Below, in pieces: positions 5,905-52,981 of a stretch of DNA of 64,000 bases. A program made the translations under genes and the position numbers. The first letter of the stretch is position 1. Each line of letters begins with the position of its first letter. The notes under the pieces are model-generated. The model was not told the DNA's origin, searched no databases, and saw only the letters and a list, made by a program, of their open reading frames with translations. The stretch is from an uncultured delta proteobacterium (GTDB lineage: Bacteria > Desulfobacterota > Binatia > UBA9968), in contig CAVXEP010000025.1 in NCBI GenBank assembly GCA_963760795.1, positions 32,001 through 96,000 of the forward strand. The letters are read 5' to 3'.

Positions 5905-6663
5905 ATGCAGTGGGATTTTGTTAAAATCGTATCCGTTGTGGCTCTATGCGGTTCGTTTGCATTTGCTCAGGATCGGCCGGCGCTAACTCTCAATCAGATC
6001 AGCGAATTACTGAAAAACGGTGTCAGTTCGACCCGTATCGCTCGGTTGGTTGAACAATATGGAGTTGGTTTTGGATTAGACGAGGCTGCATTAAGGCGAC
6101 TTAGGGCGGATGGGGCAGATGAAGTTCTTTTGTCCACGGTGAAAAGAATGGCTGTTCGATATACTGAGGAACAGCAGCGCAGAAAGCGATTGGACTCGGA
6201 AAGGAAAAAGCAAGAAGAGGCAAGACAAGCTGTAGAAGTTAAGAAAAGGGCACAGGAACAGACGCAGCTGGGAGAAGTAACAAAGCAAAGACCGCAGAAA
6301 GGCACCGCCGCGACTTTGATGACCCAGGAAGATGTCGGTCGAGTCGCGAGCCTGCGCAACGTGATGAGTACGGAAGGGGGCGAAGTATCCGGAGACGTGG
6401 TTAACAATTCGAAACAGACGCTGCGCGACGTTCAACTGCAAATCCTTTATTCCTGGCGCTGGAACAATGAGTATCAGCCGGGCAAGGACGACCCGGGAAG
6501 GGCCTCTTATTATGTCCTTGACAGGGAAATTCTGCCTGGCCAGACTGTCCGTTTCAACTATAAACCGTCCCCGCCTTTTGCTCCTCGCGCAGATGGTCAA
6601 TTCGATATCAGCGTAAAGGTTGTAGGGTTTGCACAGGTATTTCAGCCAGGCGCTCAAAGATAG
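5905..6663 (+). CDS. Exported protein: shared ~55-aa helical domain, coiled coil and FxLYD-like Ig-fold C-terminus
   Basis: Signal peptide ending AFA-QD; LTLNQISELLKNGVSSTRIARLV...LRADGADE domain; VSGDVVNNSKQTLRDVQL...ILPGQTVRF. Start set at the ATG at 5905 (ORF track starts at 5824). Confidence 0.75.
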   Translation: MQWDFVKIVSVVALCGSFAFAQDRPALTLNQISELLKNGVSSTRIARLVEQYGVGFGLDEAALRRLRADGADEVLLSTVKRMAVRYTEEQQRRKRLDSERKKQEEARQAVEVKKRAQEQTQLGEVTKQRPQKGTAATLMTQEDVGRVASLRNVMSTEGGEVSGDVVNNSKQTLRDVQLQILYSWRWNNEYQPGKDDPGRASYYVLDREILPGQTVRFNYKPSPPFAPRADGQFDISVKVVGFAQVFQPGAQR

Positions 6664-7217
6664 CGTCTCGACGCACCTTTATCGATTCAGGTGACATTAG
6701 TTGATCCGGGCAGATAGTCCCCTCCCAGCTCTCTCGGATTGCCTGCATCGTTGGTTTGATCGTTGTTCTTATTTGGTTGTGATCTATCGCGGCTTTTTGA
6801 AGGTCTTCATGTACGCGCCTTTCAAATAGCGCAATGTTCGGTTAAGTGCCCCCTCTGGGAGTTTTCATCAAACGATGATTGTGATAGCCCACCAAGACGT
6901 AGCTGTGAACGCGAAGAAGAAACACGTCCAAAGCCCGCCCGAGCAACACCAAAACCTACTCCCGGTCCGGATCGTCTTTAAAGATCGCATTCCGCCCGAC
7001 GCGCGTTGCCGCGTGAAGTAACGCGAAATCGCGCTCCGGGCACTCGATTCGTAAGGGAGGTGCCATAAAGCGTGGTATGTGGGAAAAGATAAAAGAGGAA
7101 TTAATAAACCCTTTTGTTTAGGCTCTAATCTTGTGCGCAGAAAACAATGCTTTAGTTGGGGGCGGATTTCGTCGATATTATCTCACCCAGGCGGAGCCGA
7201 ACCTGCTGTCGAACCTC

Positions 7218-7952
7218 TTATCGAGCCAGTTGCGTAGCTATCGAGAAATTGTCGCTTCTCCCTGCCAACCAACTCACACGGCAAGCTAGCGGCAAGTTCC
7301 GCGTATTTCTTTTGGTCAAAATCAAGACTCCCATTGTGCAGCGAGTGTTTGCTCTCGCAGTATCCGTATCCTTCGCTTTGTTATCCACTTGCGCAGAAGC
7401 GGCAACGACGCGACGAGCAAGGATGGCTACCAGGGGTTGCCACATCCAGAAGATCACGGCAGTTATGAGTGAACCGGTGGCTAAGGCGAATCCGGTCGCC
7501 TTCAGCGCCATGGCATCGGATTGACAGGCGTGCATCGTTGTCGTCTAGGCGGCGGTCGCCTCTCGTGTGCTGGAGGAAATCCGTTGCTCGGCCGCGAGAT
7601 CACCCGCTGATGGAAGAGTCGCAAGCATGCTCTGTATAGTGTTCTTTGGCAGCGTCGGGATCGCGCTGACAGCGTCACAGAAACCCCGGAACTCGATGTC
7701 GTTCTTTACCCACGCATCAAGGAGTTGAGATCGCCAATCGTTCAGAAGCTTGGCGTCAAGAAAAAAGAAGCGCCCACACAGCGGAAGAAGCAGTAGCAGG
7801 CCAGACAATGGCAAGAATGTCCAAGTGACTGCCGCCCAGCCAAGCGAACCGAGAGTGAGCACCACAACCGCAACGACGAGGTTTCGAAAATACCGGGCGC
7901 GGTTATCGATCATCTTTGTTGTCTGATCGATCGCAATCCTATAAGCAGACAC
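7218..7952 (-). pseudogene. Membrane protein with in-frame TAG at 7545-7547
   Basis: ORFs 7545-7952 and 7218-7535 are in the same frame (GCC TAG ACG ACA ACG ATG); both carry hydrophobic segments. Confidence 0.6.
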
Positions 7953-34258: not shown

Positions 34259-34999
34259 CCCGCGGGCCTACTGAACGGAGGGCGGGAGGCACGAAACAAA
34301 AAAGGGGCGGGTTTGGGAATCCTACCAACGGAAGATAACGATGATGAAATGGACAAAAAATCTGAGCTTTCTGGATCAGCCTCAATTCTATTTGGTAGAA
34401 ATATTTAGGCTGCGACGTTCTCCTAGCATTCGCAATCTATCAACCTCGTCACAATACAAACCGCGTTAGAAGGAGGTCCTCCCACAATACACATTGGAAG
34501 AATCAGCCTAAATAAACCCCGCCTGAAAATGACCCACTGAACACAACCGCTACGCTGCCAACACAAGCAACAATATAATACTCCGCAGAGAGCACTTGAA
34601 AACAATAAGTCCACACGAGGCGCCCAGATACACCAACCACGCCTACACCTATTTAGCCGCTTCACCAGAACTCGTCCCGACCATCTAGCAGCGGTCACGT
34701 CAATACCGTAGGCCTGTCGAGCTTACATCGCACAGTTGTCGGTATTACAGCTTTTATTGCTCGAAAAAAGTTGAGGGAAGCAAAACCCTTATACTCTTCC
34801 TTAGAATAGGTTTGCCTCTTAGTCGGTGCCGTGAGCTCAGATCAAGAAAGCTGGGCTCACGGGTCTCCCAATCTCAGCTCAAACAGTGTATGGCCGCTCC
34901 CAGAATCCTAACGTTGACCACTAGCCGTTGTGGTCCCATGAAGCGCAACGAATCAATCATTGATACTTTTAGCGCAAATCCTGGGGTTATACTGCTAAC

Positions 35000-35482
35000 T
35001 TACTCACTGGGTTTCGCCAAATTAAACGAAGTCGAAACATTACCTTGCGGATTGCTTTTTTCATCAAGTGGCGTGTATACGCTTTCGAACTTGGTATAGG
35101 CAAAGGAAACCTCTTCTAAGGGCACATCGTCACTACCGTGCGCACTTCCACCGGGACGGACCGAGGAAATCATCGCGTTTTCAAATGTATACTTCAAATA
35201 GATTTGCGGTTTTCCGACTGACTTCTGACACGTAAACTCAACTTTTGCGATTGGGTCGCCTTTACAACAGGCGACAAAGAGCTTGGGACTTGCTTTGTCA
35301 ATCTTCTTAACAAAAGAAAATTCCGAAAGATTCACCCCCCCGCCGGTAAGCGCGCTCACGCCAGCTTTCATGTTCACTGGTTGAGTAGCACCCCAATGAA
35401 AGGATTCGACCTGGATCCAGTCTTTAGGTTCCGTGCTCTCCCCAGGAATGTCACCGATTTTTATGAATGAATCAAAAGCCAT
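35000..35482 (-). CDS. hcp: Hcp (TssD) tube protein
   Basis: GGAGGT RBS; IPGES...WIQVESFHWG, KKIDKASPKL, PLEEVSFAY. Confidence 0.95.
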   Translation of the reverse strand: MAFDSFIKIGDIPGESTEPKDWIQVESFHWGATQPVNMKAGVSALTGGGVNLSEFSFVKKIDKASPKLFVACCKGDPIAKVEFTCQKSVGKPQIYLKYTFENAMISSVRPGGSAHGSDDVPLEEVSFAYTKFESVYTPLDEKSNPQGNVSTSFNLAKPSE

Positions 35483-35550
35483 AACTACCTCCCACTTGTA
35501 AATTTTAGCCTAGCGATCTATTGCCCCAATACATCAATAACAATTACTCA

Positions 35551-37047
35551 CTATCTCTTCGCTGGCGCTGGCAATTCCGCTACTAAGCGGAGCGAAACCG
35601 TGAGTTCTTCCAGCTGAAAGTGCGGCCTGAGAAACGCAACGGCCTTATATACACCGGGCTTCCCACCGACTTCCTGTACTTCAACGCGAGCTTCTCGGAG
35701 AGGAAATTTTGCCTTCATTTCCTGGCTCGCCTTATCATCCAACAGCACATAATTAGAGATCCACCGGTTCAAATAATCTTCGCAGTTTCCCCGGGTCATA
35801 AAGCTGCCGATTTTGTCCCGCATAATCGCCTTGAGATAGTGGGCGAAACGCGAGGTGGCCATAATATATTGGAGCTGGGTGGAAAGCCTCGCGTTGGCGT
35901 TCGCGGCATCGGTATCATACTTCTTCGCTTTTTGCGTAGACTGCGCACCGAAAAATGCTGCGTAATCGGTTCCTTTACAGTGTAGGAGCGGTATGAACCC
36001 AAGGTCGGACAACTCCTTCTCACGTCGATCGGTGATCGCGATCTCGGTCGGGCACTTCAAAGCTATATCCCCCTCATCGGTGGCGAAAGTATGGGTTGGC
36101 AACCCCTCCACCAGTCCACCCCCTTCAACTCCCCGGATCGCGGCACACCAACCATGTTTCGCGAAAGCGTCCGTGATGCGAGTCCCCATGGCGTATGCCG
36201 CGTTTCCCCACAAGTACTTGGCGTGATCTTTCCCGTCCACATCCTCCTTGAAGTTAAAGGCCTCAACCGGGACCGTCGCCGGTCCGTAGGGCAGCCGCAT
36301 CAGGATGTGAGGCATCGTGAGTCCTACGTAACGGGAGTCCTCCGAGTCCCGGAACGATTTCCATTTTGCATATTCTACCGTATCAAAAATTTTAGCCAGA
36401 TCCCGCGGCGCCGACAGATCAGTGAAGCTTTCCAGACCAAAAAGTTCCGGGTTTGCCGCGGATATGAAGGGCGCGTGCGCTGCCGCTGCAACGTGGGATA
36501 ACTGGTCCAAGAGCGACATGTCTTGAGGATGCCGACCGAACTCATAGTCGCCGATCATGCATCCATAAGAGGCGCCGCCGAACATGCCATACTCATCTTC
36601 ATACACTTTCTTAAAAAGTGCACTTTGATCGAATTCAGCTGCCCGCTCCAAATCTTTGCGGAGATCGTCCTTGGAAACGTTGAGCACGCGAATCTTGAGT
36701 TGGGTGCTAGTTTCGGTTTGGTGCACCAGGTAGTGTAGCCCTCGCCAGGAACCTTCAAGCTTCTGGAATTCCGGGGCGTGCATAACCTCGTTTAGCTGCC
36801 GGGAAATGGCATCGTCCAGAGCGGCAATTCGAGCCGAAATTGCACTTTCCAGGTCCTTGGAGACGACCACTGATCCTTGAAGCACCTGTTGGACAAACTC
36901 ACCGATTAAATCCTTAGCCCGGGTTCGCTCCGTATCGTTCCGCGCGATGCGGCTATCTTTAATAATTTGATCGAGAATGCCCGCTTCGTTCTCGACCTCC
37001 TGCGCCTCAGCCGCTTTGCTTTGACCTTCTCTACTCTCTTCAGCCAT
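35551..37047 (-). CDS. tssC: T6SS sheath large subunit TssC
   Basis: FQKLEGSWRGL, FDQSALFKKVYE, YLWGNAAY, LRPHFQLEELTVSLRLV. Confidence 0.98.
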   Translation of the reverse strand: MAEESREGQSKAAEAQEVENEAGILDQIIKDSRIARNDTERTRAKDLIGEFVQQVLQGSVVVSKDLESAISARIAALDDAISRQLNEVMHAPEFQKLEGSWRGLHYLVHQTETSTQLKIRVLNVSKDDLRKDLERAAEFDQSALFKKVYEDEYGMFGGASYGCMIGDYEFGRHPQDMSLLDQLSHVAAAAHAPFISAANPELFGLESFTDLSAPRDLAKIFDTVEYAKWKSFRDSEDSRYVGLTMPHILMRLPYGPATVPVEAFNFKEDVDGKDHAKYLWGNAAYAMGTRITDAFAKHGWCAAIRGVEGGGLVEGLPTHTFATDEGDIALKCPTEIAITDRREKELSDLGFIPLLHCKGTDYAAFFGAQSTQKAKKYDTDAANANARLSTQLQYIMATSRFAHYLKAIMRDKIGSFMTRGNCEDYLNRWISNYVLLDDKASQEMKAKFPLREARVEVQEVGGKPGVYKAVAFLRPHFQLEELTVSLRLVAELPAPAKR

Positions 37048-37061
37048 TTTGCTTTTCCTTT

Positions 37062-37586
37062 TTACTTTTCCTTGTCCCCCTCACCACCACCGCCTGCTTC
37101 TTGGCTTATCTTTTGAAGTGAATCTGTGTTCTTGATCACGTTATCCAGAACTTCCACGAGCTTATCGTTGCCATCCATTTTACTGAGCAGATCCGAGAGC
37201 TTGCTGCGTGCTTCGAGTAATTTTCTCAGCGGTTCCACTTGATTGACAACTCTTTCGGGCTCGAAGTCCTCCAAGCTATCGAATCGCAACTCGACTCCCA
37301 ACTTACTGTCGTCGTCAGCTAATTTATTGTTGACGCGGTAAGCGAGATGGGGTTTCTGCGCTTTTAAAACCGAATCAAAATTATCGCGGTCGATCTCAAC
37401 AAACTTTCGATCCTTAACCCTGGGTAACGGTTCCTCAGGCTTCCCTGACAGGTCGGCGAGCACACCCATGACAAAGGGAATTTCTTTCATCTCGATCGCG
37501 TCACCGATTTCTACATCGTAAGTGATGTGCACTCGTGGAGGGCGTACTCTGCTAAGTTTTTTCTGTGTGCTTTCCCTAGTGGCCAT
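37062..37586 (-). CDS. tssB: T6SS sheath small subunit TssB
   Basis: RPPRVHITYDVE, PFVMGVLADLSG, EIDRDNF. Confidence 0.98.
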   Translation of the reverse strand: MATRESTQKKLSRVRPPRVHITYDVEIGDAIEMKEIPFVMGVLADLSGKPEEPLPRVKDRKFVEIDRDNFDSVLKAQKPHLAYRVNNKLADDDSKLGVELRFDSLEDFEPERVVNQVEPLRKLLEARSKLSDLLSKMDGNDKLVEVLDNVIKNTDSLQKISQEAGGGGEGDKEK

Positions 37587-37700
37587 TATCTCCTCCGTGT
37601 AAAGAAACTTTCTTTCGAGATCCGATCACTGCCCAGATCTAATCTTGGGATCGGGTAGCAGAACCATACTCTGGGTGCGCAAATTCTGTCAAGAGCCAAT

Positions 37701-38804
37701 TCAGCGCTTAATACCGAGTGTATCCCAGAGGCGATTAAGCACATCCTCGTTCTGGACGACCTCCCCCAGCCAGGTCTCGAGCGGCATTTTCGTCCAGTTA
37801 ACCGCACGTTCGAGCAAATAGGAAACTGGATGTTGCGGCTCGGCTCTTTTCAAATAAGACGCAATCACGGCTAAACGCTGAAAGGCTTCTTCACGGCTCG
37901 TGGGTTCGGCTGACCATGCAAAATCTTGTGTCGTTGCCATGGCTCGACTCTCCGTAGGGGTAATGACTTGTGACGCCTTGCGAGCAAGCTCTCCGTCAGA
38001 CTGGATAGATGCTTCTGGTTTGTAGCTGGGATCTCGTTCCCTTTTCTTCTTAACAAAGCTGTCTATGAGCGTGAAACATTCATCAATACTATTCCTCATA
38101 CCAATAAGACTCAGAGCGTTCTGGCCGAAATGGGCATCGATAACCCCTTCCAGTTTTGCTAACTCCTCTTTGGACCGTCTTACGTCGTCGAAGAGATCTT
38201 CATAAAACGCGCGAGGCGTTGCCTCAATCGCCGCCTCAAATTTTTCTCGATCGATCTTACCTTCGGAAATCGCTTTTTGCTTCGCGCTCGGGTCTTGACG
38301 TGCCAAATTGTCGAGGCGAAGCGCCTCCTGCCACGTCACGAAAGAGAATGGAGGATCGTCCGCTGTTAACGCTAATTGCTGAATGCACAGTGGCAGCTTC
38401 AGATTCATCCACTCAAGCGGTCCCGCTCGAAACTCTAGATCGCCATCTTCGGCTTCTGGATAAAGTCGATCCCAATAAATCGTCAACAATTCGCGTAACT
38501 GGCACATTCCATCCCTAAGACCGGCAAAGCCCTGGCGCTTAACCAAGGCCTCAAGCAACCATACCGCGACTTGAATGTCCTTACTTTTCCCTGTCAATGT
38601 TTCTGTGCACAATCGGATCACGGCGGGCCAATCCGCCTTCTTGGCTTCACGCTGCCATTCTCCCATGGGCAGATCATCATCGGAACGGCGTGCTTCCTGA
38701 ATCGCATCATATGCGCCTGTGTAGCGAACTGATTCACCCGCTGGGTTTTCACCCGGAATCGGTCTCAACAATGCTTCAATATCGATTGTGGTTGGTGATG
38801 GCAT
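37701..38804 (-). CDS. tssA: TssA (short form)
   Basis: LLRPIPGENPAG, KSKDIQVAVWL, C-terminal EPQHPVSYLLERAVNW. Confidence 0.93.
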   Translation of the reverse strand: MPSPTTIDIEALLRPIPGENPAGESVRYTGAYDAIQEARRSDDDLPMGEWQREAKKADWPAVIRLCTETLTGKSKDIQVAVWLLEALVKRQGFAGLRDGMCQLRELLTIYWDRLYPEAEDGDLEFRAGPLEWMNLKLPLCIQQLALTADDPPFSFVTWQEALRLDNLARQDPSAKQKAISEGKIDREKFEAAIEATPRAFYEDLFDDVRRSKEELAKLEGVIDAHFGQNALSLIGMRNSIDECFTLIDSFVKKKRERDPSYKPEASIQSDGELARKASQVITPTESRAMATTQDFAWSAEPTSREEAFQRLAVIASYLKRAEPQHPVSYLLERAVNWTKMPLETWLGEVVQNEDVLNRLWDTLGIKR

Positions 38805-38905
38805 GGAATTCCCTGTTCTCGGCCGGCAGTTCTTAAAACCCTTGAGATCGAAAATGATCGCGAGTCACAGCAAGTTCTAGGTCTTAGAATCGAAATTCTA
38901 ATCGA

Positions 38906-40249
38906 TCAATCTTTGATGGCCACCAGTTCTGCCTTAAAGTCAGGGAACTCATCGGGCAGATACAAGGCCAGGCTCCGCGACTTACAAATCACTTCCCACC
39001 ATCTTCCCTGTGTATTCAGATGGTAATATTTATACCCGGGTTTAACCGGAATCGAGCTCGGAGGAATAGGTTCATGGGTAACCTGAATGCCGGGCATTGC
39101 TCGACCGATCAACGCAGTGATTTCATCAGGCGAACTGATTTTGGCCTTAACCGGCACATCCTCTATCAAACGACTCGCAGCTACCTGGGCATTAGCTGCC
39201 AAATAGAATTGCGAGTGTTGAAGAAGACGATCGTCGGTAATATGCCCTACATACCATTGGTGCGGCGTTTTCTCCAACGGGATGATCACATACTTCGCCG
39301 GTATGATTGTGTCCAGGAGAAACCGGATCTTCTTTTCCAACTCGTCAAAAGTCTTGAACAAATCTTCGTGATCGTAACGGGGGACATCGCGCGGGTCGGA
39401 TTGCAGGGAAAAAGTGCTGAGTTCCCCAACGAGCTGAGACAATATTAAGTATAACTGTTCCGGATGGCGATTCGGAACGTAATAATAATGTGACAGAATC
39501 GGGACAAATGAGTTCACTGTATGTAACAACCAAAAGTTAGCGATATCCGAAGCGCCAAATTCAGTGATGTGGCGCCGCTGTTGAGAAAGCGCAGAACTTT
39601 TGGCCGCAAGAATCTCCAAAATCCGATGCAGAATCATGACTAGCGTATTGCACGCAGAAATGGCGATCGACGGCGGGATAAAGGCAAGCTCGTTTAGAAT
39701 GACGGTTCCGGTTGTCGTTCGTCCTAACTCGGCGATCTTAATCCAAACTTTTCCTTCGAGGGATTCACCAGAGAAAAGAATTTGACAATTCTTTCTGGCT
39801 AGCGGTATCTCGCATTCATTGCCCTCCGTGGTTTCATCGGCGACGCGCACTAAATCCATGTGGAACCTTGTGGAAGAATCAGCACCCCCGTTGGAGGTGA
39901 GATAATTGACATTACCGGTCGATGTCGAGGGTACCGCCAGGTATACATCCAACGTCTGAGAGGATGGCGAGAAAAGGTCTTTAAATGACCGAACCTCTGG
40001 AGCCTGATCTTCATCGGGCGACTGTATCGCCAGACCATCCGGCATGATGCCAGCACAGCGAAATAAGGTGAAAAACCCGTTGGTTAAACCGTCACGATCG
40101 AACTCAAGCTCGGATACACCCCAAAAAAACGGCGACAAAGACTTCAGCTTAAAATTGAGAAGATCTTCCTTGTAGCGGTCGGCCTGTTGAAAAACATGGG
40201 GCGTAAGGAAGAGTCCTTCGGTCCAGACAACGTTTCGTGCTCGACTCAT
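38906..40249 (-). CDS. tssK: T6SS baseplate TssK
   Basis: AAGGAG RBS then MSRARNVVWTEGLFLTPHVFQQ; ATG at 40249. Confidence 0.95.
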   Translation of the reverse strand: MSRARNVVWTEGLFLTPHVFQQADRYKEDLLNFKLKSLSPFFWGVSELEFDRDGLTNGFFTLFRCAGIMPDGLAIQSPDEDQAPEVRSFKDLFSPSSQTLDVYLAVPSTSTGNVNYLTSNGGADSSTRFHMDLVRVADETTEGNECEIPLARKNCQILFSGESLEGKVWIKIAELGRTTTGTVILNELAFIPPSIAISACNTLVMILHRILEILAAKSSALSQQRRHITEFGASDIANFWLLHTVNSFVPILSHYYYVPNRHPEQLYLILSQLVGELSTFSLQSDPRDVPRYDHEDLFKTFDELEKKIRFLLDTIIPAKYVIIPLEKTPHQWYVGHITDDRLLQHSQFYLAANAQVAASRLIEDVPVKAKISSPDEITALIGRAMPGIQVTHEPIPPSSIPVKPGYKYYHLNTQGRWWEVICKSRSLALYLPDEFPDFKAELVAIKD

Positions 40250-40262
40250 CCAATCTCCTTGA

Positions 40263-43200
40263 TTACGAATTCCGCACAATAAAAGATGGCGGCTGCGGTC
40301 CGGTGCCGGTTGGCGTCGAAAAAATCGGTGGCGCGGACGCACTCGGTTGTCGAGCGTCAGCACTAAGACGGTTCAAATATTGGACAAACGCATCGGTAAA
40401 AGGAACACTTTGATTGAGCACCCGTTTGGGAGCCCATGCGCCACCCGATCGCGACAAGAAAGTCGTAGCCGAGCCATTGACGAAGGAAATGATTTTGCCG
40501 CCTTTAGGTCCTGCGTCCAAATCCTTAACTTCCAACAAAAGTCCTTCCCACTGCTGCTGCAAATATTTGCCCGACTCTTCGAGAATCGCCTTCCAGCCAA
40601 CGGAAATTGGACTGCTGAGCACTGATCCACACCAACCGATCCTCTTGCTGAGGCGACCCGATGGTCGACCGCAGCATGTTCAGCGACAACGCGGCCTTGA
40701 GTATCGCTTGCGTTGGGTTAGCTGCTGCCATCCCCCTCCTCGAATGCCTTCTTCGCCGATGCAAAACTCTTTTCCGGAGTACTCAAGTCTGCTTTGATCT
40801 GATCTAACGCGCTCAAGTATGAACTCAGGAACTTCACCGCTTCGGCTTCCTTTCCCTGAGCGCTGTCTTGGGCATGCCGGCTTGGCGTTTTTTTGCGCTT
40901 CGACAATTTTCGTCTTTCAGCGCCATGAGCTTCTTGAGCGTCGCCGCCCATGGTTGCAATTCACCGCTCTGCCATGCGTGCCGAGAATGACACTTAGATT
41001 ATCGTGGCGGATTGAAGGATCAGAATAGCTGGCGATTTGTCACCATCGAGCGCTAAAGCAATGTCTTTGGTTGCCCGCTTTTGGCTGGCCGAGCCGCTCC
41101 ATCTGCGGATACGAGTTCAAGAACTCGTCCCACTGTCGCAAGGCTTGTGTCCGGTAATTGGTTTCGAAACTCTTCAGAGATTCGCCCACGCCGGACGTCT
41201 TGCTCGTCATACTTTGAAGGCCAGAGATTAGCGGTGCAATCCCTTCGCGCCAAGCCTTAGCCGTATAAGCCGGGTCTACCTGAACCGGCCCATTGGAATC
41301 CCAGAAATCCGCGGCGCGCACAGCGGGAAAAGCAGCCGAAGCCGAGTCCAAAATTCTATCCTCACGAAGCCCCCCGCCATCCAACCACCGCCGTATTCGG
41401 TCCGTATCTTTCGACTGCATGTCACGCAGCGCGGTATCACTTTGCCAAGTCAAGTAAGCGTGATGCGTCCGACGCAGGCGCTCAGCAGTCATGGCGACAG
41501 AGTCCTGCGAGCCCTGTCCCGAAGTTAGTAGAACGCGGTAGTCTAAATTATGTTCGGGTTGAAGCGCGGCGCAATGGCCTTCGTCTAGACAGCGACCTAC
41601 GATCTGGATGCGCTGCATCACGGTTCCCACAACCATCGGGTTTGCCGATGTAGTGCTAAGATTTTGGTCAATACGGGTATCAATCGTAGCAAGCACTTGG
41701 GAACGGAAGGCATCGATAAATCGCGTCTGCAATGCACTCGCGACTTGCTTTGACTTATTTAGGCCGAAATCCATGGCCAGCCTTTTCCAAAACGATTTCG
41801 GTAGTAGATTTTCGATATTATGCCGGCATTCGTCGAGGGGGCCCAAGACAGCCGGCAACTCGTTGCTGCCGCCCCGGGTAACGCATGGCAGGACATCGAC
41901 CGATTTCAACGCAAACAAGTTATTGGTGAAGGCAAGCGTGAAGACTCCACAAACAAGCAGCGACACGGTCACGGCAACCACCACCCCCGCCGCGCGCGCC
42001 AGCCCAAAGCGCTCACGACCCGTCGCAGTCTGACCAACAAGGGTGCGATCAGATGGCAAGACGATGGCGCCAAAATCTCGCAAGAACACTTCCCGGCTCG
42101 CCGTCGTCGGTGTCGCGTGAGAATAATTTTGTCCGAGCAAATGCGACAGACGAGATAGAGGCGTAGAGCCTTGACGCGCGCTGGTTAAGAATAAACCGCG
42201 AAAAAACGGCGCATCGTGATACGGGCTTGAGCGAAAAACTACTTCGATCAATGCCTTCAAGCGGGACCTGCAAGCTTTTCAGTTCTCCAGGAAACAAAAA
42301 CATACCCCGCGTTAAGTTTTCGTTTTCGCACTCGTTAAATACAGCTATTCTCAACTCGCTCTAGTCGTTCGTAGACCATACGAAAGCCGCGATCGAACAA
42401 ACGGGGCGCCTCGGCGGCACTGGTCATTTCCTGATTGGCAAAGCCGAGGGCTTGGCCTTTTACTGTGTCGGGTAAGAGCTGAAAGAATTCACTAAAGCCG
42501 ACAATCCGGTCGCTTTTGGTGACCGCTATGTAAACTGGAAATTTGACCCCAAGTTGCTGCACCAAGTCATCGAGACGCTCGCGCAGCTGCGCCCCTTGCT
42601 CTTTCAACTTTTCGATCGGTTTAGAGATTAAGGAGTCCGCAGGGACGGCAATAACAACACCATTAATCGGCTCTCGGCCACGGTTAGTTTTTAGTAAAGT
42701 AAGTAGAGTCTGCCACTCGGCCGCGACTTCACCTTCTTTCTCCTGAAAGACATAACCGCCCGCAGTGTCGAGAAACACTGCTTTTTCGAAGAACCACCAA
42801 TCGACGTTGCGCGTCCCGCCCTCCGCACTCGATGGGCCGATTGAAGATAGCGGTGCTGACGCTTTCAAAAAAGCCGACTTTCCGCCTCCAGGTTCGCCGA
42901 TTACCAAATACCAAGGAAACGCGTAGATCGGATCGTCACCCGCCCCTTTCAATTTTGACTGTCGCAACGATGCTAGAGCTTCGAGCCATTTCTTCTTGAT
43001 GTCGAGGATCCCGCCACGATCTCCCTTACCAATGCTGATCTCACGTTCTTGTTTGGCCGACTCGCCTTCCGTCGCTACCGCCTTGCGCCGCCGCCACCAG
43101 CGCCAAGTCAAATACCCGCCGCCTGCTGCAAGCACCACAACCGCCAAACCGACGAGCAACTTCCACCAGGGTAGCTGCCAATAGACTTGGCCCGCCGCTA

Positions 43201-43690
43201 GCAATAGAAGTAGTATTGCCACCCCAGCCGCGACAGGAACGTAAGGACGCACGCTCTCCCAAGCACCAACCCCCACCCTCGCCTTGGGCTCGGCCTGCTC
43301 TTTTCGCTCCATAGTAAAAATCTCGGTTGGAGCGCTCTCCGGCGATTGGGCTTCACTTACTTCGGCGACCGCCGATGGATCTTTTGTGGAAAACGAGAGC
43401 TTCGGTCCGCGGGCGGAGAGTTGAATGACATCCCCGTCTTTCAGTTGGACTGGTTTATCGATCTTGCGCGAGTTAACCAGAGTGCCATTACGACTCTGCA
43501 AGTCCTTTAGGAAATATCGCTCACCGTCGCGATATATTTCCGCGTGATAGCCAGACACGGAGATGTCTATTTTGGGATCGAAACTGAGGTCGTTATCGCG
43601 TTGTCGCCCGATGCGGATCGTCTGGTCATTATCAAAACTCTCTAGTTGGCCAGCTTTGCTGCCTTCGATATGGGCTAAAAAAATCGGCAT
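40263..43690 (-). CDS. tssM: FHA-TssM (IcmF) fusion; several frameshifts; apparently lacks the C-terminal beta domain
   Basis: FHA (IGRQ...VSGYHAEI...SRNGTLVN), two TM helices, PWYLVIGEPGGGKS, DWWF...DTAG, PINGV, FPVY...TKSD...GFSEFF, FFRGLFLTS, third TM, helical periplasmic region spread over ORFs 41040-42260, 40718-40951, 40525-40764 and 40263-40622. Confidence 0.88.
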
Positions 43691-46241: not shown

Positions 46242-47750
46242 CTAAAAACTCGGCGGTATGAACGGCTGTTTAGTTTTTTGCGGTGGCCGTTCCTTGAGCT
46301 CGCGCTCTAGCTGATCCAAGCGCTGTCGTTCCTCTTCTAGCCGTTGCCGCTCGCGAAGTTCTTCCCGCGATTTCTCCTCGGTCCGTTTGCGCTCCGCTTC
46401 GGCCTTTTGCCGTTTCTCTTCCTCTCTTCGCCGCTCCTCTTCCTGAGCACGCCGCTTCGCATCTTCGGCGGCTTTTTGCTTTTGGGCTTCCGCCTTCGAG
46501 CGGATTTCTTCCTCTCGGCGGCGTTCTTCCTCTTGGGCTTTTCGCTTTGTTTCTTCTTCGGCTTTCTTTCTCTCCGCTTCGGCCTTTTGCCGTTTCTCTT
46601 CCTCTCTTCGCCGCTCCTCTTCCTGAGCACGGCGCTTCGCATCTTCGGCGGCTTTTTGCTTTTGGGCTTCCGCCTTCGACCGGATCTCTTCCTCTCGGCG
46701 TCGTTCTTGCTCTTGGGCCTTTCGCTTTGTTTCTTCTTCGGCTTTCTTTCTCTCCGCTTCGGCCTTTTGCCGAATCGACTCTTCAAGCTTTCTTTTCTCG
46801 TCAATGAGCCGCTGGCTTTCTTCCTTGAGCTTACGATCTGCTTCCGCTTTCCGACGTCTTGCGTCCTCCGCGCGCTTTTGTTCATCCTCTGACTTTTGCT
46901 TTAGCTCGGACTCACGTTTTTTAACCTCTTCTTTTATGCGCTGCTGTTCAGCCTTTTGCCGCGCTGCCTCGTCCGATCTTCTTTTGTCCTCATCCTTGCG
47001 TCTCTGGGCCTCCTCGGCCTGTCTCTTGCGTTCCGCCTCACGCGTTTTCGCGTCTTGTAGCCGTTGCTGCTCGAGTTCCGCTTTTTGCCGTTTCTGTTCG
47101 TCGAGCTTTCGGCTAGTCTCTTCTTTCCGTCGAGCTTCTTCCTGGGCTTTGCGCTCAGCTTTTTCTTTTTCTTCTCTGGCTCGCCGTTCACGCTCCGCCG
47201 TTTCTTTCGCTTCGCGTTCCTGACGCTCTTGTGCCTCTTTGGCTTTCTGTTCACGCGCAGCTTTTTCTTTCGCCTCTCGGTCAAGCCGCTCGCGCTCAGC
47301 ACGCTCCTTAGCTTCTTTCTCCTGACGCTCTTTGACGGCCTGCTCCCGAGCTGCCCGCTCCTCGCGCTCGCGGTCCGCCTTTTCTTTTTCTTGGCGCGCC
47401 CGCTCAGCCCTCAGTTTTTGCTGGGCTTCGGTGTACCGCGCCGCGGCTTGTCTGATCGCGGAAAGCGCATTGTCGTCCGCCCCGCTTGACCGCAATTGCT
47501 GTTCTGCCGCGTTCGTATAGTCAAAATTCACTCCATGCTCGTTGACGACTTGGGCAACCCGCGCCGGGCTGACTTTATCCTTCAAGAGATCGGTGATCTC
47601 CTTTAAACTGAACGGGCCTCGCCCTTGAGCGAGGGCGCAAACCACCGCCGCTAGCGCCAACACATTCCCAAGCAAAGAGAGCGCTGATTTCGCCGGCACG
47701 AGCGAAATTGCCCAGGGTTGCTTCACCTCGACCTTTGTCTCTGGTTTCAT
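46242..47750 (-). CDS. Exported protein with shared ~55-aa domain and a very long E/K/R-rich helix (TolA-like composition)
   Basis: Signal peptide ending ALA-QG; FSLKEITDLLKDKVSPARV...LRSSGADD; about 380 aa of charged helix; tail PFIPPSF. Confidence 0.8.
   Translation of the reverse strand: MKPETKVEVKQPWAISLVPAKSALSLLGNVLALAAVVCALAQGRGPFSLKEITDLLKDKVSPARVAQVVNEHGVNFDYTNAAEQQLRSSGADDNALSAIRQAAARYTEAQQKLRAERARQEKEKADREREERAAREQAVKERQEKEAKERAERERLDREAKEKAAREQKAKEAQERQEREAKETAERERRAREEKEKAERKAQEEARRKEETSRKLDEQKRQKAELEQQRLQDAKTREAERKRQAEEAQRRKDEDKRRSDEAARQKAEQQRIKEEVKKRESELKQKSEDEQKRAEDARRRKAEADRKLKEESQRLIDEKRKLEESIRQKAEAERKKAEEETKRKAQEQERRREEEIRSKAEAQKQKAAEDAKRRAQEEERRREEEKRQKAEAERKKAEEETKRKAQEEERRREEEIRSKAEAQKQKAAEDAKRRAQEEERRREEEKRQKAEAERKRTEEKSREELRERQRLEEERQRLDQLERELKERPPQKTKQPFIPPSF
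46391..46772 (-). repeat. 180-bp (60-aa) intragenic tandem repeat, about 2.1 copies
   Basis: CTCCGCTTCGGCCTTTTGCCG recurs at 46392, 46572 and 46752. Confidence 0.9.
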
Positions 47751-47844
47751 CAAGATGTTCAACTCAGCAAGACAATGCAACCAGGCTAAGGTTTTTCTAA
47801 TGACCGCCTCGTCCGTTGGATGATTTGCGCTAAAGGGAGAGGCT

Positions 47845-49443
47845 TCAAGAGTCGCACCGCGAGTTCGTCAGCCCGCTACGCCGTTCGGCCTGGCAGGCAC
47901 TCTTGGTTTGTTGATATTCGGATTGGACGAGCTTGTTTCTAGGATCGATTGCTTTAGCTTGGCGGAGCGAATCGAACGCAACATCGTAGTTCCCCTTATC
48001 CCGCGAGGACCGGGCGATCTTGATGATCTCATCCACCGTCGGCCCAGGCGGCGGCGCTTTGGCCTTGACGGTCACATTGAAAGCCGCGCTCTCTGCGCCC
48101 TGGTGCTTCACGGAAATCTGCGCTATTCCTTCATTGCGCGCCACCACTTCGCCCTGCCCATTAACGGTAGCTACCGAAGGATTGCTGCTTTGCCACTCTA
48201 AATTCTCAGTAATCGCTGTCTGGGTTCCGTCGCTAAAGTTGCCACTAACCGTTAGCGGACCTTTCTCGCCGACTGCGAGTTCTCGCTGTCCGGTCAATGC
48301 CAGTGCGACAACCTTTCTTGGCGCAGGGTCGTGACTTCCAAATCCACCCATGAACCACAACAAGGCAATAACTAACACAACAGCACCCGCTACTGCCGCG
48401 CCCATAATCGGAAGGCTATATCGCGATGTCTTCGGCAAGTCCTCCCGGTTAAGAATCATGGTCTGTGAAACGGTATGATTCACCGGTACCTCGTCTATCG
48501 CGATGCCGTTCGCCTTCTGTAATCCCTCCACGACCGCGTGCATATCCTTGAGCCGCTTCTGGGGCTTTTTTTCCAGGGCTTGCATGACCAATCGTTCGAT
48601 TACAGCTGGCACCTCGCGGCGTATTTTCCGCAGCGGTGCCGGCTGTTCCTGGAGATGCTTGATCAAAACCGCGCTTGGCGTAGAGGCTTTGAACGGAACC
48701 GAGCCGCTAAGCATTTCATAGAGAACGACTCCCAAGGCGTAGATGTCGGTCTTCTCGCTGATATCCGTGCCTTCCGCTTGCTCTGGAGCCATATAGGCAG
48801 GGGTTCCCATGATCACCCCAGTGCGGGTCAGGTTGGCGGCATTACCAGAATCCATCATGCGCGCGATGCCAAAGTCCATCAGCTTGATTTCTTCAGCGCC
48901 ACGGTGGCCCAAGACCATGATATTGTCCGGCTTGATGTCACGATGAATGACTCCGGCCAAATGCGCTGCTTCGAGCCCTTCCGCGATCTGGAGGCCCAGT
49001 CGGACCGCCCGCCGAATTTCCAGTGGGCCGTCGTGCCGGACTACATCGCTCAGCTTTGCACCCTGCAAAAACTCCATGGCAATGAACAAGCTGCCATCAT
49101 TACCCTGGTCGAAATCGTATATGGTGACGATATTTCGGTGGTTGAGCGAGGCGGCCAATCGAGCCTCCCGGCGAAATCGGCCGATAAATTCATCGTCGTT
49201 GGCATAGTTTCCCTGCAAGACTTTTAGCGCAACTTTGCGGCCTACGCTGATCTGCTCGGCAAGATAGACCGAACCCATGCCCCCCTCGCCGATCTTGCTA
49301 ATTACACTGTAGCGGCCCTTAACAAGTTTGCCTAAATAAGGATCCTCTTTCACCCCGACAATTCGCAGAGTCGCGCCATCGGCCTCACAATGCTCGACGG
49401 CATGTTCGTAGTTTCGTTCGCAAAGTGGACAGTACTTCATCAC
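47845..49443 (-). CDS. Membrane Ser/Thr kinase 1 (PpkA-like): Zn ribbon, kinase, TM, Big_2, TPR-like tail
   Basis: GEGGMG, VALK, HRDIKPDN, DFG, YMAPE; WQSSNPSVATVN (Big_2). Confidence 0.93.
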   Translation of the reverse strand: MMKYCPLCERNYEHAVEHCEADGATLRIVGVKEDPYLGKLVKGRYSVISKIGEGGMGSVYLAEQISVGRKVALKVLQGNYANDDEFIGRFRREARLAASLNHRNIVTIYDFDQGNDGSLFIAMEFLQGAKLSDVVRHDGPLEIRRAVRLGLQIAEGLEAAHLAGVIHRDIKPDNIMVLGHRGAEEIKLMDFGIARMMDSGNAANLTRTGVIMGTPAYMAPEQAEGTDISEKTDIYALGVVLYEMLSGSVPFKASTPSAVLIKHLQEQPAPLRKIRREVPAVIERLVMQALEKKPQKRLKDMHAVVEGLQKANGIAIDEVPVNHTVSQTMILNREDLPKTSRYSLPIMGAAVAGAVVLVIALLWFMGGFGSHDPAPRKVVALALTGQRELAVGEKGPLTVSGNFSDGTQTAITENLEWQSSNPSVATVNGQGEVVARNEGIAQISVKHQGAESAAFNVTVKAKAPPPGPTVDEIIKIARSSRDKGNYDVAFDSLRQAKAIDPRNKLVQSEYQQTKSACQAERRSGLTNSRCDS

Positions 49444-49956
49444 TAAAACCCAGTTAAATCCCAGCCGCTACTTACCAAGTTCCTTGGTTTTTAGCAAAGT
49501 AGCGACAAATAGAAAACCGTCAGCCAATTTGCGACTTAGGCTTCGGCTGACACAAAAACGTCATAGCCCATGGCTGGGAATTGTCAGTAAGTTATCAAAG
49601 ATCATCAAGGCGCTACGGTTTCTGAGACTGCTTCGACTTTCCAAGATTAACTCACGATGTCGCGTTGTCATAAACATCGCCTGTCCTCGAAACAATAACC
49701 GGCTCAGGACAACAAACATCTCCCTTTTGCGCCGATTTGTCGTATAATTACAAACGTTTTGAGTGTATCAGCCCGACATTTGAACGTCGGTTTCGATGGA
49801 TTTTCAATAGACTGTTTTAAAGCTATACTTTGCGGAAGAGGAAGCGATTACTAGGCAAAAAAGAGTTCAGCGCGCTTCGTTGCGTCATGGACAAGTCAAA
49901 CTTTGAGAATAGTTTACGCGCCCCGCGGGCCATCACAGTCTGAATTAGGCAATCCA

Positions 49957-52143
49957 ATGAAAAACTGCCCTAATTGTCATCGACAGTTTAGCGATGACGC
50001 AACCACCTGTGAATTTGACGGCACCCCCCTCGTCGGATCGGCTTCAACGCAAGATCCACTCATCGGCACAATTCTTAACCGCCGGTACAAAATCCTCGAT
50101 CAGATTGGCCGCGGCAGCATGTCGAACGTTTACCTCGCCGAACAACTCCGCGTCGCAAGAAAAGTCGCGGTGAAGCTACTGGCCGAAGAATTTTGCCGTG
50201 ATGAAGCCTGCATCAAGCGCTTCCAGCAGGAGGCGAAAATTGTTTCAAGCCTAGACCATCCGAATCTGATACGGATCTTCGATTTCGACCATACGGACGG
50301 CGGCGGCTTGTATATCGTGACGGAATATTTGCGCGGGCAAACCCTTAAAGCGATCATCGATCGCGGTGCGATCGAAATCCCCAAAGCCGTGCGCTTCGCA
50401 GCACAAATTGCCGATGGCCTTGGTGCCGTCCATCGAGCTGGGATCGTTCATCGCGATCTTAACGCCAAAAACGTGATGGTGATCGATAACGAAACTAAGA
50501 TCACCATCACGGATTTCGGCTTTGCCAGACTGCGCGAAGCGGAGTCCGTCGCAAGACTCACCCAAGTCGGCACCGCTTTGGGCGGTCCTGAATATATGGC
50601 CCCGGAACAGATTGAAGGCCGCGAGACCGACGAACGAACCGATATCTACTCTCTAGGAATCCTGCTTTACCAAATGCTTTGCCATACCCTGCCGTTCACC
50701 GCGCCGACACCGGCCGCCGTGTGGATGCAACACCTAAAGGCCGCCCCCATGCCGCCGACTCAACTACGCCCGGAAATCTCGGCAGAATTAGAACAAGTTA
50801 TTTTACGTGCTTTACAGAAAAATCCTGAACTCCGTTGGCAGGGAATGACGGAATTTGCCGAAGCGATCCGGCACACCGAAAGAGTCGTTGGCCAGAAATT
50901 GTCACCCTCGTCTGAGCATCCGACCTCAGCGCTAGATACGCGGCCAAGGCTAACAGAAATCAGCGACTCACCGGTAACACACCCAGCGGAGGCGTTGAAT
51001 CGCCGCACAGTTCACACCGACGCGAATTTCCGCACTGCCGATGCCGCTCCCCAAACCGTCATCATGGAATCCTTCGATACATCAACCGTCAACTCTGAAA
51101 GCGACAAATCTCGGTACGAATCGGTAAACAGCAACAACCAAACAATGGTACTGACGAAGGCTCTCGAGATCGGCCCACGTCCCGGACGAAATTGGCAGGT
51201 GTGGAGTTTGGGCGCCGCCGCGCTATTCGCCTGTGCTGCGATCGTATGGTTGGGCGTGTTCTCTAAGCCCGTCCCGGAGAACCGACCGTCATCCCCTGCT
51301 GAGGATCCCAGCCGCACGACAGTCAAAGAGTTACCACCAAGTCAGATGGTATCGATTTCTATCGATGCGGAAAAAGCAGTATTGAACCTCGGCGAGGGCA
51401 CGACCCTGCGCTTAAGCGTCCAATACAGCGACGGCTCACGCAAGGCCATCAGCGGCACCGAGCCGATCAGTTGGACCAGCACAGATCCGACAATCGCAGC
51501 AGTGGATTCAAGCGGTGCGGTCAACGCGAAAAAAGTCGGCAAAGCTGAGCTGAAAGCCCGCTATTTAGGCTTGGAGACACAGCTTTTGCCCGTGCAGGTT
51601 AAAGCACCATCGCCATCCCCGGCCGCGCAACCAAAGCTCATTGCCGTGACCGTGAAAGCGGCTAAACGGGATCTGACCGTCAACGATGAAGTTAATTTGC
51701 AGGCAACCGGCATATATTCGGACAAACGACAGTTGGCAATCAAAGCCGGCGTTCGCTGGGACAGTAGTGACCCGAATATCGCGGCTGTAACTGAATCGGG
51801 AACTGTACTCGCCAAAAAAGCAGGACGCGTGGAATTGATCGCGCGCTACGATGGGATCGCTAGCGAACCACTGACCTTGCTCGTCAAACCAGCATCAATG
51901 AAAAACCCAGCCACTATTCAACAGACAAGGAAGCCATTGGCGACAAAAGTGGCCAATACCTCGGAACAAATTAGAAACGCTCGATCTCGACTGGACCGCG
52001 GTGAATACACCGAGGCGCTGGGCGAACTGGAGAAAGCCAGCAAAGTCGATCCCGGCAACAAAGAAGTGCAAGCCGCAATCCTTGACGCCAAACGCGCCTG
52101 CAATGCCGAGCGGGCATTTGGCCGCACCGATCTGAAATGTTAA
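49957..52143 (+). CDS. Membrane Ser/Thr kinase 2 with atypical catalytic loop: Zn ribbon, kinase, TM, two Big_2, TPR-like tail
   Basis: GRGSMS, VAVK, HRDLNAKN, DFG, YMAPE; WTSTDPTIAAVD and WDSSDPNIAAVT. Start set at the ATG at 49957. Confidence 0.9.
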   Translation: MKNCPNCHRQFSDDATTCEFDGTPLVGSASTQDPLIGTILNRRYKILDQIGRGSMSNVYLAEQLRVARKVAVKLLAEEFCRDEACIKRFQQEAKIVSSLDHPNLIRIFDFDHTDGGGLYIVTEYLRGQTLKAIIDRGAIEIPKAVRFAAQIADGLGAVHRAGIVHRDLNAKNVMVIDNETKITITDFGFARLREAESVARLTQVGTALGGPEYMAPEQIEGRETDERTDIYSLGILLYQMLCHTLPFTAPTPAAVWMQHLKAAPMPPTQLRPEISAELEQVILRALQKNPELRWQGMTEFAEAIRHTERVVGQKLSPSSEHPTSALDTRPRLTEISDSPVTHPAEALNRRTVHTDANFRTADAAPQTVIMESFDTSTVNSESDKSRYESVNSNNQTMVLTKALEIGPRPGRNWQVWSLGAAALFACAAIVWLGVFSKPVPENRPSSPAEDPSRTTVKELPPSQMVSISIDAEKAVLNLGEGTTLRLSVQYSDGSRKAISGTEPISWTSTDPTIAAVDSSGAVNAKKVGKAELKARYLGLETQLLPVQVKAPSPSPAAQPKLIAVTVKAAKRDLTVNDEVNLQATGIYSDKRQLAIKAGVRWDSSDPNIAAVTESGTVLAKKAGRVELIARYDGIASEPLTLLVKPASMKNPATIQQTRKPLATKVANTSEQIRNARSRLDRGEYTEALGELEKASKVDPGNKEVQAAILDAKRACNAERAFGRTDLKC

Positions 52144-52168
52144 GGGGGTTAGACCTACCACGGTTAAG

Positions 52169-52981
52169 CTATTTTTTTTGAAGCAGATCGACCTCTTCCT
52201 CAATCGTCCGGCCGACCGATTCTAAGCCAACGATGAATTCTGGACGATCCGTCCTTTTGTTGACAATCATGACGAGGCTCGCGTCCACCCGCGCGCTGAT
52301 CAGTTTGCGGCCATCCCAGCCGCGATTTGACTCGGTTTTTCTCACCGCTGTGTGCCAGCTCTGTATCTCTTTCAGCGCACGCTCAATATCTCTCACCGCT
52401 TGTTGACCAGGGCTGCTTAACGCGACGTTCAATCGCGCTCGTCCGCTCGCGCGAATTTGCGCGATTAACTCGTCGTCCGCGCCGGCGCGGCGTAACTCCT
52501 TCTCGCCATCGGCGTTCAAGTCAAAACTTGCCCCTCGCTCTTTCACGAGAGTCGCAACCCGCTTCGGAGAAACTCTTTCTTTTAGAATAAACAGAACATC
52601 ATTCAGCGCAAACGAGTTATCGGACTTCGACGCCGGCGCAGGCCCGGCTTCGCGAAAGGCAATAATGCCAAGGTAGAGCCGGGCCATGAAGTCGCCACCA
52701 TCGCGCTTTAATCCCTGAGCGAGCGCATTTCGAGCATCGGCAATTCTACCGGCATCATAGTAAGCTCGTCCCAGATAGGTCCAAATGCTTTGCCGGAGCG
52801 GCGGAGTATCAACAACATAGTCGGGCTGGGCCACCGCAATGCGCTCGAAGTGGGAGATCGCGACATCCGCCTTGCCGGATAATAACGCAGTGCGGCCCGA
52901 CTGGGACTCCTTCGCTACTTGAATGCCACAGCCGCTGAAAAATGAAATTACAAAGATCGAGTAAAGTAGTCGTTTTAACAT
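52169..52981 (-). CDS. TPR lipoprotein carrying the shared ~55-aa domain
   Basis: MLKRLLYSIFVISFFSGC lipobox; TPR WTYLGRAYYDAG; FALNDVLFILKERVSPKRV...LRRAGADDEL. Confidence 0.8.
   Translation of the reverse strand: MLKRLLYSIFVISFFSGCGIQVAKESQSGRTALLSGKADVAISHFERIAVAQPDYVVDTPPLRQSIWTYLGRAYYDAGRIADARNALAQGLKRDGGDFMARLYLGIIAFREAGPAPASKSDNSFALNDVLFILKERVSPKRVATLVKERGASFDLNADGEKELRRAGADDELIAQIRASGRARLNVALSSPGQQAVRDIERALKEIQSWHTAVRKTESNRGWDGRKLISARVDASLVMIVNKRTDRPEFIVGLESVGRTIEEEVDLLQKK

Follow-up and report, generated by a model that had tools for sequence, protein, structure and literature searches.

What is the function of a domain of about 55 amino acids that recurs in three exported proteins encoded in and near a type VI secretion system (T6SS) island? 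The question is raised by a stretch of 64,000 nucleotides, here called the window, from an uncultured delta proteobacterium of the Binatia (assembly GCA_963760795.1, contig CAVXEP010000025.1, positions 32,001 to 96,000). The original prediction took the domain for a periplasmic docking or oligomerisation module that assembles an accessory complex, or for a ligand of the kinases encoded nearby. In the current study, comparison of sequences and gene neighbourhoods made it moderately probable that the domain is the periplasmic partner of single-pass receptors which end in a conserved hairpin with two cysteines.

All three of the peptides on which the domain was proposed were present in the window, each as a copy of 54 amino acids. 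Copy A (5983..6144, forward strand; residues 54-107 of host protein A) was in frame as originally placed, whereas copies B (47451..47612; residues 57-110 of host B) and C (52451..52612; residues 141-194 of host C) were found on the reverse strand, one base off. In pairwise BLASTP the copies aligned without gaps over all 54 residues, with 22 identities between A and B (41%, E 1e-15), 19 between A and C (35%, E 1e-10) and 24 between B and C (44%, E 2e-17), and 15 of the 61 columns in the alignment of the three were invariant. On these alignments the likeness is one of homology, far beyond chance. At E <= 2.6e-15 a profile of the three copies had four matches in the entire 6.58-Mb assembly, namely the window copies and one more on a different contig (G000:C3:119215-119385), where it is surrounded by housekeeping genes; no further match in the assembly was obtained before E 0.39.

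The earlier descriptions of the hosts as an Ig-fold protein, a long-helix protein and a TPR lipoprotein agree with the features of their open reading frames (ORFs). At its N-terminus host A (5824..6663, forward strand) has a hydrophobic helix, which is followed by the domain, a long charged helix and, at the C-terminus, a beta-sandwich (a SadB-like helix plus sandwich), for which "Ig fold" is a fair term. Host B (46242..47780, reverse strand) has a hydrophobic N-terminus, the domain and a helix of about 400 amino acids rich in E, K and R, and host C (52169..53032, reverse strand) is a predicted lipoprotein (lipobox FFSGC) with TPR, the domain and a C-terminal helical part.

The domain was also correctly called unnamed. 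Neither Pfam nor NCBIfam gave a match at E <= 1 over the domain in hosts A, B and C or in the isolated copy, and no Pfam family covered it in 148 scanned relatives, in which overlaps with KfrA_N, DUF2795, LTV and MobB all fell below the cut-off. The best match of the domain profile among PDB sequences had an E value of 0.17, the ESM Atlas returned only clusters of "hypothetical protein" with scores below 0.9, and a limited literature search, which is no proof that the domain is unpublished, found no relevant description of it.

The isolated domain was modelled by AlphaFold2 from a 21-row alignment with a mean predicted local distance difference test (pLDDT) score of 94.0 and a predicted template modelling score of 0.74. 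The model confidently predicts a four-helix unit made of two helix-turn-helix hairpins (helices 6-14, 19-29, 37-45 and 50-60) with a one-residue bridge. Comparison of the two halves with hhalign was no more than suggestive of an internal duplication (local E 0.0043 over 13 columns, global E 0.17). The signature G-[IV]-x-F ... L-[RK]-x-A-G-A was derived from 258 instances, with column frequencies of 0.96 for G30, 0.97 for F33, 0.90 for L43, 0.90 for R/K44, 0.98 for G47 and 0.87 for A48. Foldseek gave no matches to the model at E <= 1e-3, and VIA-align gave none of 48,161 chains at Z >= 5 (best Z 4.9, generic alpha-alpha repeats), although a missing structural match is no proof of a new fold. 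Among the 50 VIA rows listed, the neighbours were alpha-solenoid pieces (Z 4.9 to 2.8, root-mean-square deviation (rmsd) 2.5-3.9 A, 42-59 residues). The domain resembles TPR, HEAT and ARM repeats in its two helix-turn-helix hairpins and in these neighbours, but no such Pfam model matches it, it has its own signature, and it forms separate beads with linkers and not a continuous solenoid.

A profile search had been proposed as a check of the domain, and it bore out the absence of a characterised Pfam family. A 13-sequence profile run against 1.84 billion cluster representatives retrieved 1657 of them at E <= 1e-3 and 342 at E <= 1e-10, so that a large family of at least 1657 clusters at 50% identity is not covered by the Pfam, NCBIfam and PDB collections searched. 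Partners were identified with Pfam in 148 of the best 150 relatives, two proteins of 3347 and 5191 residues being left out. A renewed search of the 150 recovered 148 proteins, in which the domain table gives 253 instances of the domain and the alignment from that search 258; roughly counted, 105 of these proteins carry an N-terminal hydrophobic stretch. Hand counting of partners gave 55 proteins without any family, about 38 with PEGA or CarboxypepD_reg sandwiches, about 29 with TPR, nine with TonB_C, five with FGE-sulfatase, five with Glucodextran_B, four with WD40, two protein kinases with the domain on the outer tail, and one each with SPOR, Lcl_C, DUF642 and Sel1. The domain is real, widespread and extracytoplasmic, and is not named in the libraries searched.

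The genes next to those of the domain gave the first functional handle on this family. The products of three window genes match Pkinase (E 1e-49 to 6e-54), and all of them contain a hydrophobic segment and an ectodomain. STK1 (47845..49443, reverse strand) has a zinc-ribbon-like N-terminus, a Hanks kinase, a transmembrane segment, Big_2 and a C-terminal two-cysteine hairpin (47848-48024); STK2 (49903..52143, forward strand) has a kinase, a transmembrane segment, two Big_2 and the hairpin (51961-52140); and STK3 (53425..55236, reverse strand) has a kinase, a transmembrane segment, a P/A-rich repeat linker and the hairpin (53428-53607), which is its only folded ectodomain element. The same hairpin, with the consensus R..G.Y..A...L.KA..IDP.N......I...K.AC.AER......C and 18 invariant columns in the alignment, ends all three island kinases and a protein on contig C3 that lies tail-to-tail with the fourth copy of the domain. 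It is TPR-like, scoring as TPR_11 or TPR_2, and carries two cysteines. The C3 receptor (L027:10737-11756) was found without its TIR part, in a frame of 343 residues against 439-557 in relatives.

Beyond the window, the output of these receptors varies. The partner of the domain lipoprotein was TIR_2, a transmembrane segment, two Big_2 and the hairpin in all four loci tested from the genus, and in other genera it was kinase-Big_2-hairpin in four loci, TIR_2-Big_2-hairpin in two and CHAT-Big_2-hairpin in one. When the hairpin alignment was searched against a collection of 5.8 billion proteins, 54 clusters were obtained at E <= 1e-5 (the window's own proteins included), with outputs recorded as kinase in 15, TIR in 17 and PF00656, which we take to be the caspase family, in two; none was recorded for the other 20, many of which are fragments. 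The receptors are modular, with one ectodomain, usually Big_2 plus hairpin, and swapped outputs of the Hanks kinase, TIR or CHAT/caspase-like type.

In eight loci (L027, L038, L043, L047, L055, L076, L082 and L083) the receptor is a single-pass protein with cytoplasmic TIR_2 or CHAT and periplasmic Big_2 plus cysteine hairpin, and each lies tail-to-tail with a TPR-domain lipoprotein. For a TIR protein, a periplasmic sensor is unusual. For the TIR receptor PADLOC returned nothing more than generic TIR matches, and it gave no match for the hosts.

Domain and hairpin genes occur together. The own genome has exactly four hairpin proteins (the three island kinases and the one on C3) and exactly four domain proteins, and the two are 0.2-0.8 kb apart for copies B, C and the C3 copy. 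Within the genus, the domain was found in 18 of 24 genomes, nearly always as a single copy, and the hairpin in 23 of 30; in all 18 domain-positive genomes (one of which, G004, is unpublished) a hairpin match lay on the same contig within about 0.7 kb. The commonest domain protein of the lineage is a lipoprotein of about 280 residues with TPR, the domain and a helical C-terminus, which is family-wide and of which host C is a full-length paralogue (39% identity over 241 amino acids). By tblastn, 17 of 17 loci of this lipoprotein include a Big_2-hairpin gene.

The gene-context survey covered this family of the lineage. In a draw of 60 genomes from the family, with hairpin detection at E <= 1e-5, the domain was present in 21, across 13 of 23 genera (own genus included); 17 genomes had both elements, four the domain only, one the hairpin only and 38 neither. 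In the hairpin-only genome (G384, unpublished) the match lay at a contig edge. All 17 genomes having both elements contained an adjacent pair, within 0.7 kb. Two other families of the order gave domain matches in none of five and one of eleven genomes; this sole match (L025) was rejected as spurious, being an opposite-strand frame of high GC content. Among 300 other genomes drawn from the phylum the domain was found in one, which belongs to the same family as the own genome.

Gene order is conserved as well. In the window (STK1 and host B) and in genomes G331, G389 and G359, a kinase-hairpin gene precedes, on its own strand, a gene for signal peptide, domain and charged helix, sometimes with TPR; in the G331 and G389 kinases the hairpin is the only element outside the membrane. 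In other proteins the two elements are fused. Hairpin-like units occurred in five of the 148 domain relatives, and a hairpin-like match was present within 45 amino acids upstream of seven of the 253 domain instances, all seven abutting the domain directly (gap -3 to +3). One hairpin-domain fusion lies in the ectodomain of a kinase (P0049). Head-to-tail fusion of elements that are otherwise found on neighbouring gene products is a classical sign of a physical pair, and the hairpin and the domain, being fused in some proteins and encoded by neighbouring genes elsewhere, therefore show this sign.

The existence of a real domain, its adjacency to and co-occurrence with the hairpin, the swapping of outputs and the fusions therefore point to a partner role, and the suggestion that the domain is a ligand for the kinases is consistent with the position of its genes beside receptor genes with a conserved hairpin end, including those of the island kinases. 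The export signals are read from sequence; physical contact, the surfaces that would touch and the signal that would be sensed are inferred, and direct contact between domain and hairpin is proposed tentatively, at a little short of an even chance.

Several observations weigh against a partner role. The related genomes are kin, and the co-occurrence counts overstate their independence. Four of the 21 domain-positive family genomes had no hairpin at the cut-off used, one domain protein of G331 (L070) lies among histidine-biosynthesis genes, and the fused hairpin-like units do not carry the two cysteines. Host A is the protein that fits least: the window has no hairpin gene closer to it than about 42 kb, the G020 orthologue also has none nearby, and a degenerate Big_2-hairpin fragment upstream of a host A relative in one Binatia metagenome-assembled genome (MAG; locus L071) was the sole such case. 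Moreover, 143 of the 148 relatives have no hairpin-like unit and have other partners such as PEGA, TonB_C and SPOR, so that hairpin pairing may be one specialisation within a more general role of the entire family. The adjacency could also arise from contacts made by other parts of the proteins, such as the TPR of the lipoprotein or Big_2.

One such general role would be that of an envelope-anchoring or localisation module, which, as LysM, SPOR, AMIN or PG_binding_1 do, binds peptidoglycan or some other polymer of the envelope, the receptor neighbourhood then being due to other parts of the hosts. Like AMIN, SPOR and LysM, the domain is small, promiscuous and often repeated in exported proteins with many partners. 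One, two or three copies are present in 63, 65 and 20 of the 148 proteins; 100 of the 148 first copies begin within 60 residues of the start, often right after a signal peptide, and in 48 proteins the last copy stops no more than 15 residues short of the C-terminus; and the fusions to TonB_C (9), SPOR (1) and PEGA-type sandwiches (about 38) and the placement on kinase outer tails (2) are of the same kind. Repeated, promiscuous and terminally placed modules are the pattern of known wall-binding modules. The domain has no sequence or fold relation to any of these, however, its window copies are mildly acidic and not basic, and anchoring leaves unexplained both the direct hairpin-domain fusions and the tight adjacency to hairpin receptors with its conserved orientation; we regard it as unlikely. 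Still less probable is an oligomerisation cap, which would seed dimers or trimers inside the lipoprotein and where the charged helices of hosts A and B begin, and make the hosts multimeric stalks. A long helix rich in E, R and K directly follows the domain in hosts A and B and in P0013, P0047, P0126, P0130, L028, L030 and L032, the fourth domain helix of the host A model runs into a long helix (H100-149), the helix and sandwich of host A match the trimeric lipoprotein SadB (PDB 4c47, Foldseek E 3.6e-5), and a crude count gave 16 of the 148 relatives with a 40-residue window of at least 65% E/R/K/Q. By that count, though, no charged helix follows the domain in the other 132. Tandem copies joined by proline-rich linkers, as in P0012, do not fit a cap either, and the adjacency to the hairpin would again be unexplained.

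The third alternative, closest to the original prediction, is a structural accessory of the T6SS that docks the three hosts onto the membrane complex of TssM, TssL and TssJ. The 64-kb window with its T6SS holds three of the genome's four copies, the domain was found in four of the five other TssC-positive genomes among the 60 of the family, and each of the related T6SS clusters in G359 and G372 has a gene for a domain protein too. These two are the clusters, among five T6SS-positive relatives, in which the pair is inside a syntenic T6SS cluster. In G372 the order is PP2C, kinase, host C orthologue (52.7% identity over 283 amino acids) and, tail-to-tail with the latter, the STK2 orthologue, and in G359 it is FHA-TssM, a kinase-hairpin gene and, at the cluster end, a domain-hairpin-domain-TPR gene. 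In every T6SS cluster seen, however, the domain gene adjoins a kinase gene and not TssM, TssL or TssJ, and nothing points to TssM, which had been named as a possible partner. TssC was matched in none of 30 other genomes of the genus, against the domain in 18 of 24, and 17 of the 21 domain-positive family genomes have no TssC. A cluster in G331 encodes a kinase-hairpin protein, a domain protein, PP2C, four FHA proteins and an FHA-GAF-cyclase without any T6SS gene. The phyletic pattern therefore makes a structural T6SS role very improbable. The hairpin-receptor link is the rule and the T6SS link is real but optional, since those 17 domain-positive genomes show no TssC. What stands of the original prediction is one homologous, exported and unnamed module, and its kinase-ligand alternative fits the adjacency; a T6SS-specific assembly module does not fit the fourth copy among housekeeping genes, the domain-positive genomes without TssC and the many fusion partners unrelated to T6SS. 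Nor did T6SS linkage extend to host A, which lies about 11 kb outside the T6SS genes with insertion sequence (IS) elements between, and whose orthologue in G020, a relative without T6SS, has no T6SS neighbour.

If the domain is a partner of the hairpin receptors, it would dock on the C-terminal hairpin of the receptor, in the same geometry as in the covalent end-to-end hairpin-domain fusions. Docking would tie the receptor to an outer-membrane-type lipoprotein (host C and the C3 copy) or, in the case of hosts A and B, to a long charged helix that would reach across the periplasm or measure it. A threonine-phosphorylation switch for T6SS assembly may then be formed in the island by its three hairpin kinases, PP2C and FHA-TssM, with periplasmic input to the kinases through hosts B and C.

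A broader proposal, which we consider somewhat unlikely, is that the hairpin forms one half and the domain the other of a split alpha-solenoid, a "plug and socket" that couples envelope-spanning partners to interchangeable cytoplasmic effectors and serves as a general sensor of envelope damage or attack. The partners would be an outer-membrane lipoprotein or a charged helix of variable length acting as a ruler, and the effectors a TIR domain, a CHAT/caspase protease or a kinase that sets off T6SS firing; the receptors with TIR or caspase would then be transmembrane switches for suicide or defence, with their trigger in the periplasm. To our knowledge, periplasm-triggered TIR signalling of this type has not been described in bacteria so far. 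The occurrence of the same ectodomain-partner pair with kinase, TIR and caspase-like outputs bears on three kinds of signalling, including membrane-bound TIR proteins with a periplasmic sensor.

Two periplasmic spacers hold near-perfect tandem duplications, and spacer length seems quick to change. In host B a 180-bp unit (x 2.1, 97% identical) is duplicated in the charged helix (in window 46392-46772), and in STK3 a 138-bp unit (x 3.0, 84%) is repeated in the P/A-rich linker (in window 53583-53993).

Envelope sensing by T6SS kinases is understood for only a few proteobacterial systems, and the sensor module proposed here, from an uncultured Binatia lineage, is a different one. According to two reports, TagQ, a lipoprotein, and TagR, a periplasmic protein, of Pseudomonas form a complex that acts on PpkA (PMC13713981; PMC13584744). 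The island shares with the TagQ/TagR-PpkA-PppA-Fha1 pathway of the P. aeruginosa H1-T6SS a Hanks kinase with a periplasmic part, a PP2C phosphatase and an FHA protein, as well as a lipoprotein (here host C) and other periplasmic proteins encoded beside the kinases. The two differ in that the island has three kinases instead of one and joins FHA to the N-terminal part of TssM. The ectodomains differ too, that of PpkA being a von Willebrand-type domain and those of the island kinases Big_2 plus cysteine hairpin. None of the 48 window ORFs that were scanned, and none of the three hosts, gave an FGE-sulfatase match (TagR-type, COG1262); this family is fused to the domain in the five distant relatives counted above. 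Likewise, no ABC-transporter family (the TagS/TagT pair) was found among these 48 ORFs, short ORFs not all having been scanned. Host C has a lipobox and is a candidate counterpart of the TagQ-type outer-membrane lipoprotein.

A second parallel is RtkS of Serratia, which is reported to act on the periplasmic domain of TagE/PpkA (PMC13584744). RtkS is a small exported accessory protein encoded in a T6SS cluster that acts through the periplasmic domain of a kinase (PMC13584744), as is proposed for the hosts. The domain proteins have no family name in common with RtkS and are probably unrelated to it. The island arrangement would be analogous to both TagQ/TagR-PpkA and RtkS-PpkA, built from unrelated parts. 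We know of no RtkS that occurs with TIR or CHAT receptors.

The T6SS core genes (VgrG pieces, ClpV, TssG, TssF, TssE, a methyltransferase, Hcp, TssC, TssB, TssA and TssK) occupy 24540..40363 on the reverse strand, and the cluster also holds TagJ and TssL-OmpA, with Rhs and DUF2169 genes beside the core genes. Components of a threonine phosphorylation pathway are found in the cluster, namely transmembrane Hanks-type Ser/Thr kinases, a PppA-like PP2C phosphatase (58298..59197, forward strand) and an FHA domain fused to the N-terminal part of TssM (42335..43690, reverse strand), a likely phospho-threonine reader.

Further members of such pathways were seen nearby and in G331. The G331 cluster (L068:6671-14735, contig C194) encodes FHA-OmpA, a second kinase-like protein, PP2C, the kinase-hairpin protein, the domain protein, VWA-FHA and FHA; the FHA domain of its FHA-OmpA is 54% identical to that of the window FHA-TssM. 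The left end of the window (3-1523, reverse strand) encodes an FHA-GAF-adenylate/guanylate cyclase, and a 46% identical homologue lies beside the G331 cluster (L068:15088-16902). The presence of this homologue next to kinase, PP2C and FHA genes suggests a cyclic-nucleotide branch of the same phospho-threonine signalling.

The region behaves as an island in sequence comparisons, as judged from a right flank native to the genus, a left part without close orthologue, IS genes at 11.2-16.8 kb and a genus without TssC. In the right flank, an aldo/keto reductase (61674-62738) has identities of 94, 90 and 89% in three congeneric genomes, against 74 and 72% in other genera. Mis-binning of contig C25 was rejected for this flank, as the aldo/keto reductase is closest to the own genus. 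In the left part, an aminotransferase (8009-9184) is about 50% identical everywhere and has no close orthologue, which marks this part as accessory or foreign. Between host A and the Rhs end lies a group of genes (11201-16795) that contains HTH_Tnp_1 twice, HTH_21, an IS200-like Y1_Tnp and a truncated SRAP gene, and fits an island border or rearrangement.

In host B the domain starts five residues after the hydrophobic N-terminus and is the only folded part; the gene is directly downstream of STK1 on the same strand. Host C, which has Pfam TPR_14 and TPR_16 matches, lies tail-to-tail with STK2. The AlphaFold2 model of host A has a whole-protein mean pLDDT of 69.6, with block means of 71-89 in the sandwich. 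Its top Foldseek match was SadB, an inner-membrane lipoprotein of Salmonella (probability 1.0, template modelling scores 0.23 and 0.31, 16% identity), and the remaining matches were generic Ig-like sandwiches. SadB shares with host A a long helix followed by a beta-sandwich, but the identity is low, and so are the template modelling scores, with a high rmsd, because the orientation of the helix is free. We know of no N-terminal four-helix domain in SadB. Orthologues of host A form 24 clusters, all annotated "hypothetical", and occur as one copy in G020 and in MAG records of Candidatus Binatia and Thermodesulfobacteriota; a locus search with host A gave two true relatives and two weak matches on the charged helix.

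Just upstream of host A, a TssC-like paralogue (4551-5738, forward strand) has the VipB N-terminal domain only (E 7e-67) and is 31% identical to the island TssC. G359, G360 and G372 likewise have similar second VipB genes, which lie on other contigs or a long way from the main TssC.

Some T6SS genes of the window are split. TssM is spread over two reverse-strand ORFs that differ in frame and are separated by about 75 nt (42335-43690 for FHA plus IcmF-N, 41040-42260 for the rest), for neither of which an IcmF C-terminal Pfam domain was reported. The same two-piece TssM with a similar gap is found in the syntenic clusters of G359 and G372, so that the split is probably not an assembly error. VgrG is encoded by two overlapping ORFs on the reverse strand, with Phage_GPD at 25388-26020 and Phage_base_V plus gp5_C at 24540-25478, which may be due to a frameshift or sequencing error. 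Between TssE and Hcp, the window encodes a methyltransferase of 503 amino acids (32747-34258, reverse strand; MTS, DUF7782 and DUF7059), and a homologue with 35% identity is likewise located between TssE and Hcp in the G372 cluster.

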